NCBI GenBank assembly: GCA_963745035.1
Contig: CAVUVW010000013.1
Coordinates: forward strand, 160,001-224,000
DNA length: 64,000 nucleotides
Reading direction: 5' to 3'
Source of the DNA: an uncultured delta proteobacterium
Lineage (GTDB): Bacteria; Desulfobacterota; Binatia; UBA9968
The notes under the pieces: generated by a model
What the model was told of the DNA's origin: nothing
Database searches by the model: none
The model's input: only the letters and a program-made list of their open reading frames with translations
Translations under genes and position numbers: made by a program
In this document: piece by piece, positions 32,907 to 33,497 of the stretch
How positions within the stretch are numbered: the stretch's first letter is position 1
How the letters are laid out: every line of letters begins with the position of its first letter

Positions 32907-33497
32907 TTAATTGATTTTCGTCAGCTCGCGACGAATCTGCTCGTTGGTTGCCCGCTTGTTGTAATCGACTTCGATAAATTTCCAGCGCACGATTCCCTTG
33001 GGGTCGATGACGTAGGTCGCGGGATGGGGCCAGCCGCGGCCGTCGGGGTTGAAGATGCCGTAGCGGTCGATGACTTTGTGATCTTTGTCTTCGAGCAGCG
33101 GAAAATCGAATTCGCCGTCGAAGCGCTTGCGCAGCATGTCACCGAATTTTTTCGAGTCCGCGTGCGAGTCGACGCTCACCGCGAGAATCTGGGTATTTTC
33201 CTTCTGCTTTTTGGTCAATAAACTTTTCAGCTCGCCGAGCTGAGCGACACAAGCTGGTCACCAGTAGCCGCGATAGAAAACCAGCACGACGCTTTTCTTG
33301 CCGCGAAAATCCGACAACGTGATCGCTTTGCCGTCGGCGGCTTCGAGGCTGAAATCGGGCGCCGCCTGGCCCACTTTGACGCGGTTCAGATCGGTCGGCG
33401 CCAGATCGAGCCCCTCCTTCGGTCCGAGCTGCGCACCGGCGGGAGTGCTCATCAAGAACAGGGCAAAAGCTACAATGACGATTCGTCGTGCCGGCAT
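32907..33497 (-). CDS. Exported AhpC/TSA (peroxiredoxin-like) selenoprotein with UxxC motif, 196 aa
   Basis: ORFs 33258-33698 and 32907-33218 are one frame: ..[13 protein letters not shown](33260-33258)[45 protein letters not shown] before ATG 33497; signal peptide. Confidence 0.88.
33227..33243 (-). promoter_or_regulatory. Bacterial SECIS-like hairpin
   Basis: TCAGCTC-GGC-GAGCTGA perfect stem beginning 14 nt 3' of the in-frame TGA, with G in the apical loop. Confidence 0.72.

Follow-up and report, generated by a model that had tools for sequence, protein, structure and literature searches.

A peroxiredoxin-like UxxC selenoprotein gene with a predicted signal peptide in an uncultured Binatia bacterium

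The gene and its annotation

The window, the whole stretch of 64,000 nt that was analyzed, carries on its minus strand (33497-32907) a gene of 196 codons for a peroxiredoxin-like (AhpC/TSA) UxxC selenoprotein, recognized from the sequence, a Pfam AhpC-TSA match and an AlphaFold model. Its ATG is at 33497, with a ribosome-binding site AGGAG visible in the sequence 7 nt 5' of it (33509-33505, minus strand), and its terminal TAA ends at 32907. Codon 80 (33260-33258, minus strand) is an in-frame TGA in the context FYRGYW-U-PAC; from the ortholog column and from contigs of other sequencing runs it was assigned as Sec80, the first residue of U-P-A-C. A first-pass annotation, made from the letters of the window alone, had pointed to this TGA and to an open frame of 116 further codons, and the sequence and a recount agree with both. 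It had also called the read-through AhpC/TSA-like, and the Pfam AhpC-TSA model (PF00578) runs straight across the TGA, spanning residues 42-172 of the read-through protein (E 1.6e-35; 122 bits against a cut-off of 26).

Standard annotation had been expected to split or truncate such a gene. ORF calling does break it in two (33258-33698 and 32907-33218), and Sec is seen in none of the 120 best database proteins that were listed: 31 start past the TGA, 22 have Trp and 1 has Ser at the site, 65 are Cys orthologs, and the motif is missing from 1. The 22 Trp entries (among P0002-P0040) are nearly all from JGI, and selenoproteins hidden in this way look like W-x-x-C proteins; the gene caller probably chose a code with TGA as Trp on short contigs.

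Some neighboring genes appear to be frame-split, including glucokinase-like ORFs (31139/31284) and ketoacyl synthase-like ORFs (34504/35543), which fits an earlier remark that the other gene breaks of the window are indels. Frame-split housekeeping-type genes lie at window positions 25664-28631, 31139-32141, 34504-35890 and 37829-39489, consistent with assembly indel errors; they are transaldolase/isomerase-like, glucokinase-like, ketoacyl synthase and ThyX-like genes, all named by eye except the ketoacyl synthase.

Gene neighborhood

Orthologs were collected as all loci of at least 40% identity with duplicates removed, giving 88 distinct genes; from the scan of a species-level genome collection the best 80 of 195 loci were taken. 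The 5' neighbor in the window, on the same strand with a gap of 40 nt, is a short-chain dehydrogenase gene (33538..34359, minus strand; Pfam adh_short) that occurs at Binatia-like loci only, and pentose-phosphate genes lie downstream on the opposite strand. The upstream short-chain dehydrogenase is present at 28 of the 88 loci, all of the TGA type. Clustering of the genes around the 88 loci showed neighbors to be lineage-limited, with short-chain dehydrogenase, 6-phosphogluconolactonase and glucokinase in Binatia-like genomes and peptidase-like genes elsewhere, as judged by eye. There was no redox partner gene among the 40 commonest neighbor clusters of these loci, and no sigma-70 promoter-like site in 32700-34600. 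The neighborhood gives no hint of function and does not decide between a reductase and a peroxidase.

Conservation of the TGA codon

Alignment of homologs at codon 80 had been proposed as a check on the selenoprotein assignment, and the column reads TGA in 69 of the 88 orthologous genes and TGC or TGT in the other 19. When 61 genomes were searched, its own included, 33 had a match at E <= 1e-25; all 36 matches contain one in-frame TGA, and one of them carries a TAG besides. The TGA form is held by records titled Candidatus Binatia or delta proteobacterium, by Blastocatellia and by several Gemmatimonadota, and the Cys form by 18 Gemmatimonadota and one Pyrinomonadaceae. The closest named relatives (72-78% identity) are mostly Ca. 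Binatia, and the DNA occurs mainly in soil, rhizosphere and winery metagenomes. On a quick tree of 82 rows (loci L018-L046 left out), which does not give the direction of change, the U/C label switches only twice. One ortholog with an extra TAG six codons past the TGA and one with a frameshifted N-terminus (L024/L054 and L076) are errors or decaying copies.

In each of four runs, which come from four different studies, a single contig (X1 record 1, X2 record 11, X4 record 18 and X15 record 5) spans codon 80, and no other letter was seen. The X1 contig is near-identical throughout the stretch, and this DNA may derive from it, which leaves the other three as the more independent ones. Contigs of the RNA run X15 cover most of the gene including codon 80; such contigs, though assembled from an RNA library, are no evidence of transcription. 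The first-pass annotation had judged a chance nonsense error unlikely here, and this held: contigs from all four studies have TGA at 33258-33260, with no TGC or TGT.

Selenocysteine machinery

A search for selA, selB, selC and selD had likewise been suggested, and all four are present in the genome. The genes selA (592 bits), selB (347) and selD (385), all above cut-offs, lie together on one contig, C17, which also carries a tRNA-Sec with anticodon TCA; selD itself holds an in-frame TGA. We found selA in 56 of the 61 related genomes, including all 32 relatives that have this gene. Among 48 distant genomes chosen by their codon, selA is present in 30 of 30 that bear TGA against 1 of 18 that bear Cys; these genomes are incomplete, and the pattern reflects two or three lineages and does not amount to 48 independent tests. 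Since the U/C label changes only twice on the quick tree, the selA contrast and the SECIS contrast described below are not independent counts.

The findings at the codon thus run contrary to the outcomes that had been named beforehand as refuting a selenoprotein, which were a Cys codon in the reads, or a genome lacking the Sec machinery with homologs that never have TGA: the contigs read TGA, the machinery is present and homologs do have TGA. Decoding of TGA as Trp or another residue under an alternative genetic code might be suggested by the Trp at this column in 22 of the 120 listed database proteins, for which a gene caller's translation of TGA on short contigs is the most likely source. 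Such a code has a negligible chance of being the explanation, given that ordinary genes of the genome end in TGA (for example at C14:453988), that the column alternates in DNA only with Cys codons and that the tRNA with anticodon TCA is tRNA-Sec. We conclude that TGA80 is almost certainly recoded as Sec.

SECIS-like hairpin

A bacterial SECIS-like hairpin with a 7-bp stem lies at 33243-33227 (minus strand), its GGC loop at 33236-33234; it was assigned from conservation, covariation and bSECIS criteria. It begins 14 nt past the TGA and its loop is 21 nt from the TGA, so that the position and stem noted earlier for TCAGCTC-GGC-GAGCTGA are borne out. The bSECIS criteria as given in a 2026 review are a loop of 3-9 nt, a stem of 4-16 bp, G in the first two loop positions, spacing of 16-37 nt and MFE <= -7.5 (PMC13188914); a bSECIS check, also suggested at the outset, found a 7-bp stem, a 3-nt loop starting with GG, 21 nt spacing and -8.6 kcal/mol. 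By folding energy the 71-nt region does not outdo its shuffles (z 0.03), and the energy is uninformative, so the case for more than chance rests on comparison with relatives.

The five core pairs with a G-led loop are found in 67 of the 69 TGA genes against 0 of the 19 Cys genes. Codons within the stem are frozen (CAG for 67 of 68 Gln, CTG for 66 of 69 Leu, AAG for 41 of 41 Lys), and Leu codons immediately flanking it vary freely. When 39 of the 69 TGA genes are aligned, 96.2% of cells pair, compared with 17-55% in slid controls, and three pairs show changes of both partners (G-C to A-U, C-G to U-A, and C-G to U-A or G-C). On four of five measures 0-1 of 500 shuffles scored as high; the fifth, further pair types, equaled the shuffles, and one slid control beat the hairpin on the covariation score (0.173 vs 0.142). 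The conservation could be partly protein-driven, as the hairpin encodes a conserved Q-L-G-E/K-L. The element is also similar to others in the genome. In a six-frame scan of coding-like read-throughs, hairpin scores of at least 20 were obtained for 30 of 1136 at TGA, 6 of 843 at TAA and 1 of 814 at TAG, with 22 for this gene; the score was tuned after candidates had been seen, and these counts are descriptive. The 12 nt 3' of the stem (window 33226-33215) have an AT fraction of 0.64 in TGA genes vs 0.33 in Cys genes, amino-acid differences being uncontrolled; the AT-rich stretch may keep the flank of the hairpin unpaired.

The hairpin, which has a T-rich tail 3' of it, scores as terminator-like, and a general attenuator or terminator role, considered for this tail, was rejected on finding such a tail in just 14 of the 69 TGA orthologs. 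The same count bears on the idea that the TGA really ends translation or arose as an assembly error, leaving a pseudogene or two small genes with the hairpin as a weak intrinsic terminator. The frameshifted genes nearby in the assembly and the 31 of 120 listed database proteins that begin downstream of the TGA would fit this idea. We consider it very improbable: three phyla or more keep the TGA with an unbroken frame on either side, independent contigs concur on it, and 2 terminator-like sites were found vs 2.4 expected by chance. The conservation of the TGA, taken together with selA and the hairpin, contradicts a stop or an error.

Predicted signal peptide

In the N-terminus, which had been taken for a signal peptide, two Arg and a strongly hydrophobic core precede A-x-A and Gln23, and this sequence pattern and its conservation among orthologs support the assignment. 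A cleavable signal peptide is predicted for residues 1-22 (33432..33497, minus strand) from a heuristic applied to 82 orthologs and from low pLDDT over residues 1-30. Orthologs keep the same N-terminal pattern, followed by a conserved QLGP-like start. By this simple heuristic, run on the 82 orthologs with a usable start (6 of the 88 had none), 71 have the hydrophobic core and 5, the window gene included, have a Tat-like RR pattern; none of the 82 has a lipobox. Judging from these sequence patterns the protein is very probably exported, likely by the general secretion route with cleavage.

Fold and active site

The AlphaFold2 model, built from an 88-row alignment, has a pLDDT of 87.3, with low confidence confined to residues 1-30. 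By the model, Foldseek and VIA-align the protein has the peroxiredoxin fold, and the nearest solved structures are all peroxiredoxins (AhpE, Tpx, Prx6 and BCP). AhpE aligns to the model with a Foldseek E of 1e-13 and TM of 0.67, and with a VIA-align Z of 20.9 (rmsd 1.9, 149 residues aligned); for ResA the VIA-align Z is 16.0 (rmsd 2.2, 133 aligned). No NCBIfam model scored above its cut-off among the 21 families listed, ResA reaching 69 vs 170 bits, TlpA 40.7 vs 230 and DsbE 26.7 vs 123.

Among the residues invariant in all 88 aligned proteins are Arg76, Gly77, Trp79, Cys83, Pro157, Pro159 and Arg182 (32952..32954, minus strand), and His158 is conserved in 87. Cys83 (33249..33251, minus strand) is the sole Cys of the protein and the predicted resolving residue. 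Where peroxiredoxins have PxxxT/SxxC(U), this protein reads R-G-Y-W-U-P-A-C: AhpE alignments place Arg76 of the FYRG motif (33270..33272, minus strand) at the site of the PxxxT proline, and Sec80 stands for Thr. Pro159 (33021..33023, minus strand) lies opposite AhpE Arg116, replacing the catalytic Arg of peroxiredoxins. We take its site to be that of the thioredoxin cis-Pro, as in ResA-type proteins. Because an invariant Pro occupies the catalytic Arg position, the protein is not a true peroxiredoxin despite its peroxiredoxin-like fold.

Relation to known classes

The gene fits the 'Prx-like' UxxC selenoprotein class catalogued since about 2005, and it is no new kind of system. The first-pass annotation had called it a peroxiredoxin-like UxxC selenoprotein of a known class; the class and the motif are indeed in published datasets, and what did not stand is any reading of the protein as a true peroxiredoxin. 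A Sargasso Sea study defined a 'Prx-like protein' family by UxxC replacing TxxU (PMC1088965), and the GOS study describes 'Prx-like 1' as pfam00578 with UxxC in 225 sequences (PMC2398784). Under 'Prx-like 1', the GOS Dataset S1 holds FYRG-H-W-U-PYC and FYRG-Y-F-U-GIC sequences, one with a hydrophobic N-terminus (PMC2398784); the string FYRG occurs 49 times in this dataset and FYRG-x-x-U-x-x-C in at least 2 passages under that name, the likeness being one of motif. The 2026 review, in its Table 1, has a 'Prx-like thiol:disulfide oxidoreductase' (PF00578, UxxC/UxxU), one of 119 families that it lists, and calls the functions of the predicted class largely uncharacterized (PMC13188914). The gene shares with 'Prx-like 1' the PF00578 domain, UxxC rather than TxxU (U80-P-A-C83) and Cys homologs at the same column. 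Its branch, hosted by Binatia-like, Blastocatellia and Gemmatimonadota genomes, differs in a conserved cleavable-type signal peptide, a following extension QLGPxDG...PTD and a P-H-P motif.

We found no paper on the exported branch or on selenoproteins of Binatota/Binatia; the genes may already figure in the supplementary data of large surveys. A paper on Binatota reports a capacity for aerobic methylotrophy and does not contain the word 'selenocysteine' (PMC8262859), and a term search of the deep-Sep paper gave no mention of Prx or Binatia (PMC12013277).

Several other groups invite comparison. The CDD family PRX_like2 (cd02970) consists, by its description, of CxxC proteins on a peroxiredoxin scaffold that lack the catalytic trait typical of peroxiredoxins (PMC3514251). 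The features of the protein agree with this description, except that Sec stands in place of the first Cys. FYRGxWCP is presumably typical of PRX_like2. With true peroxiredoxins (M. tuberculosis AhpE, BCP/PrxQ and the Sec forms with TxxU) the protein shares the fold and a Cys, Cys83, at the peroxidatic Cys position, but it has neither the Pro and Thr of PxxxT nor the catalytic Arg, and its Sec is at the Thr position instead of the peroxidatic one. With Caulobacter PrxL and with ResA, TlpA and DsbE, which are fed by DsbD, CcdA or ScsB, it shares a thioredoxin fold and predicted export. ResA, TlpA and DsbE are periplasmic reductases without Sec, and the protein has lower fold similarity to them (as seen for ResA) and falls under their NCBIfam cut-offs; PrxL belongs to another subgroup (cd02969), has no Sec and has distant cysteines instead of CxxC.

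Proposed function

With the peroxiredoxin Pro, Thr and catalytic Arg all replaced, we infer that the protein is most likely a periplasmic thiol-disulfide oxidoreductase, and we give a probability of roughly 0.6 to the whole chain of Sec insertion, export and action as a thioredoxin-type thiol-disulfide oxidoreductase on a peroxiredoxin scaffold. SelB would bind the GG-loop hairpin 21 nt downstream and bring Sec-tRNA(UCA) to UGA80, and the signal peptide would route the chain via general secretion, to be cut before Gln23. In the periplasm the Sec80 selenolate would attack an oxidized protein cysteine, Cys83 would resolve the adduct as a selenenyl-sulfide, and a membrane electron carrier would re-reduce the protein, a candidate being the single CcdA/DsbD-type gene of the genome. 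That one DsbD_TM gene, of CcdA size, adjoins a Cys-type TlpA-like gene and is a plausible electron source. Caulobacter PrxL is a periplasmic Prx-like protein that is kept reduced by ScsB and whose peroxidase activity was undetectable (PMC3322552). Against the reductase reading, the predicted model is nearer to peroxiredoxins than to ResA (Z 20.9 for AhpE, 16.0 for ResA). No activity, localization or proteomic data for this family were found in the literature searched.

The protein could instead be an exported selenium-dependent peroxidase, in which Sec80 would reduce H2O2 or organic peroxides, Cys83 would resolve, and Arg76, His158 and Arg182 would rebuild the peroxide site. The best fold matches, all peroxiredoxins, argue for such an enzyme, as does the near-complete conservation of these three residues (Arg76 and Arg182 in 88 of 88, His158 in 87 of 88), and periplasmic peroxide reduction exists in bacteria, as by PprX (PMC3322552). 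We think it unlikely, if a real possibility, with Pro replacing the catalytic Arg in all 88 proteins and the Cys-only orthologs having the same site. A CxxC motif without the peroxiredoxin triad makes a poor peroxidase, which also counts against it, and so does the example of PrxL, without detectable peroxidase activity (PMC3322552). A more specific version, an undescribed periplasmic subfamily in which rewiring at Arg76, Sec80, His158-Pro159 and Arg182 has made a selenium-dependent peroxidase out of the peroxiredoxin scaffold, is tentative and slightly more doubtful still.

An exported redox chaperone for a metal or cofactor would serve one dedicated client, for example by holding the cysteines of apocytochrome or of copper sites in reduced form. 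The protein weakly resembles ResA, TlpA, DsbE and SCO1, below cut-offs except for Pfam SCO1-SenC (26.7 vs 22.8 bits), and this hints at such a role, which we regard as improbable: no cytochrome-maturation or copper gene was recognized among the commonest neighbors, and the genome has its separate Cys-type TlpA-like gene beside ccdA. A general thiol-disulfide oxidoreductase remains our preferred reading.

Other selenoprotein candidates in the genome

Among 39 hand-picked read-through candidates, 29 have a family match that spans the TGA. The spanning families are UGSC (four), GrdB-like (four), PrdB-like (two), AhpD/YciW-like (five), rhodanese (five), GST (two) and Grx (two), and further FdnG, OsmC, SelL-like, AhpC/TSA and MetE-like. 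With SelD, this gene and 5 Prx/Prx-like paralogs these make at least about 36 selenoprotein candidates, a lower bound for an assembly with 5.8% contamination. The genome is selenoprotein-rich; the record stands at 57-63, and aerobes rarely keep selenoproteins, according to the 2026 review (PMC13188914).

A paralog of this gene lies at C13:778715. The MetE-like (PRK06520-type) gene (C14:799846, minus strand; L161, L167) has its TGA at the H-x-C position, which we take to be a zinc ligand. One TGA is present in 16 of its 17 closest matches, and in 15 loci fetched the site is TGA in 14 and TGC in 1, most of these loci having a GGT-loop hairpin. A class III adenylate/guanylate cyclase (C14:291150, plus strand; L163, L182) has an N-terminal Cys-rich region that ends in C-x-x-U; the 8 matches obtained from 41 genomes all have TGA at this position and all belong to one genus, and the SECIS is less typical. 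The cyclase is possibly an uncatalogued selenoprotein, and neither MetE-like nor adenylate-cyclase-like forms appear in Table 1 of the 2026 review (PMC13188914). Two further candidates are a DUF411 protein (C26:42386; L137) whose hydrophobic N-terminus is followed by U-G-C-C, and a small membrane protein (C10:51980; L158) with a TGA and a GGC-loop hairpin and no family match.

Significance

An annotation error is corrected here for a real and often mis-annotated selenoprotein gene, and the orthologs provide a clean Sec/Cys pair for a predicted class with largely uncharacterized functions. The protein also gives an example of a Sec redox enzyme that is predicted to act outside the cytoplasm. 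If the rewired scaffold were in fact a peroxidase, it would serve to defend the envelope of soil bacteria that are rich in selenoproteins and probably aerobic. This would go against the view that Sec is seldom kept by aerobes, and the Cys orthologs of selA-less Gemmatimonadota would then offer a ready test of Sec versus Cys outside the cytoplasm.
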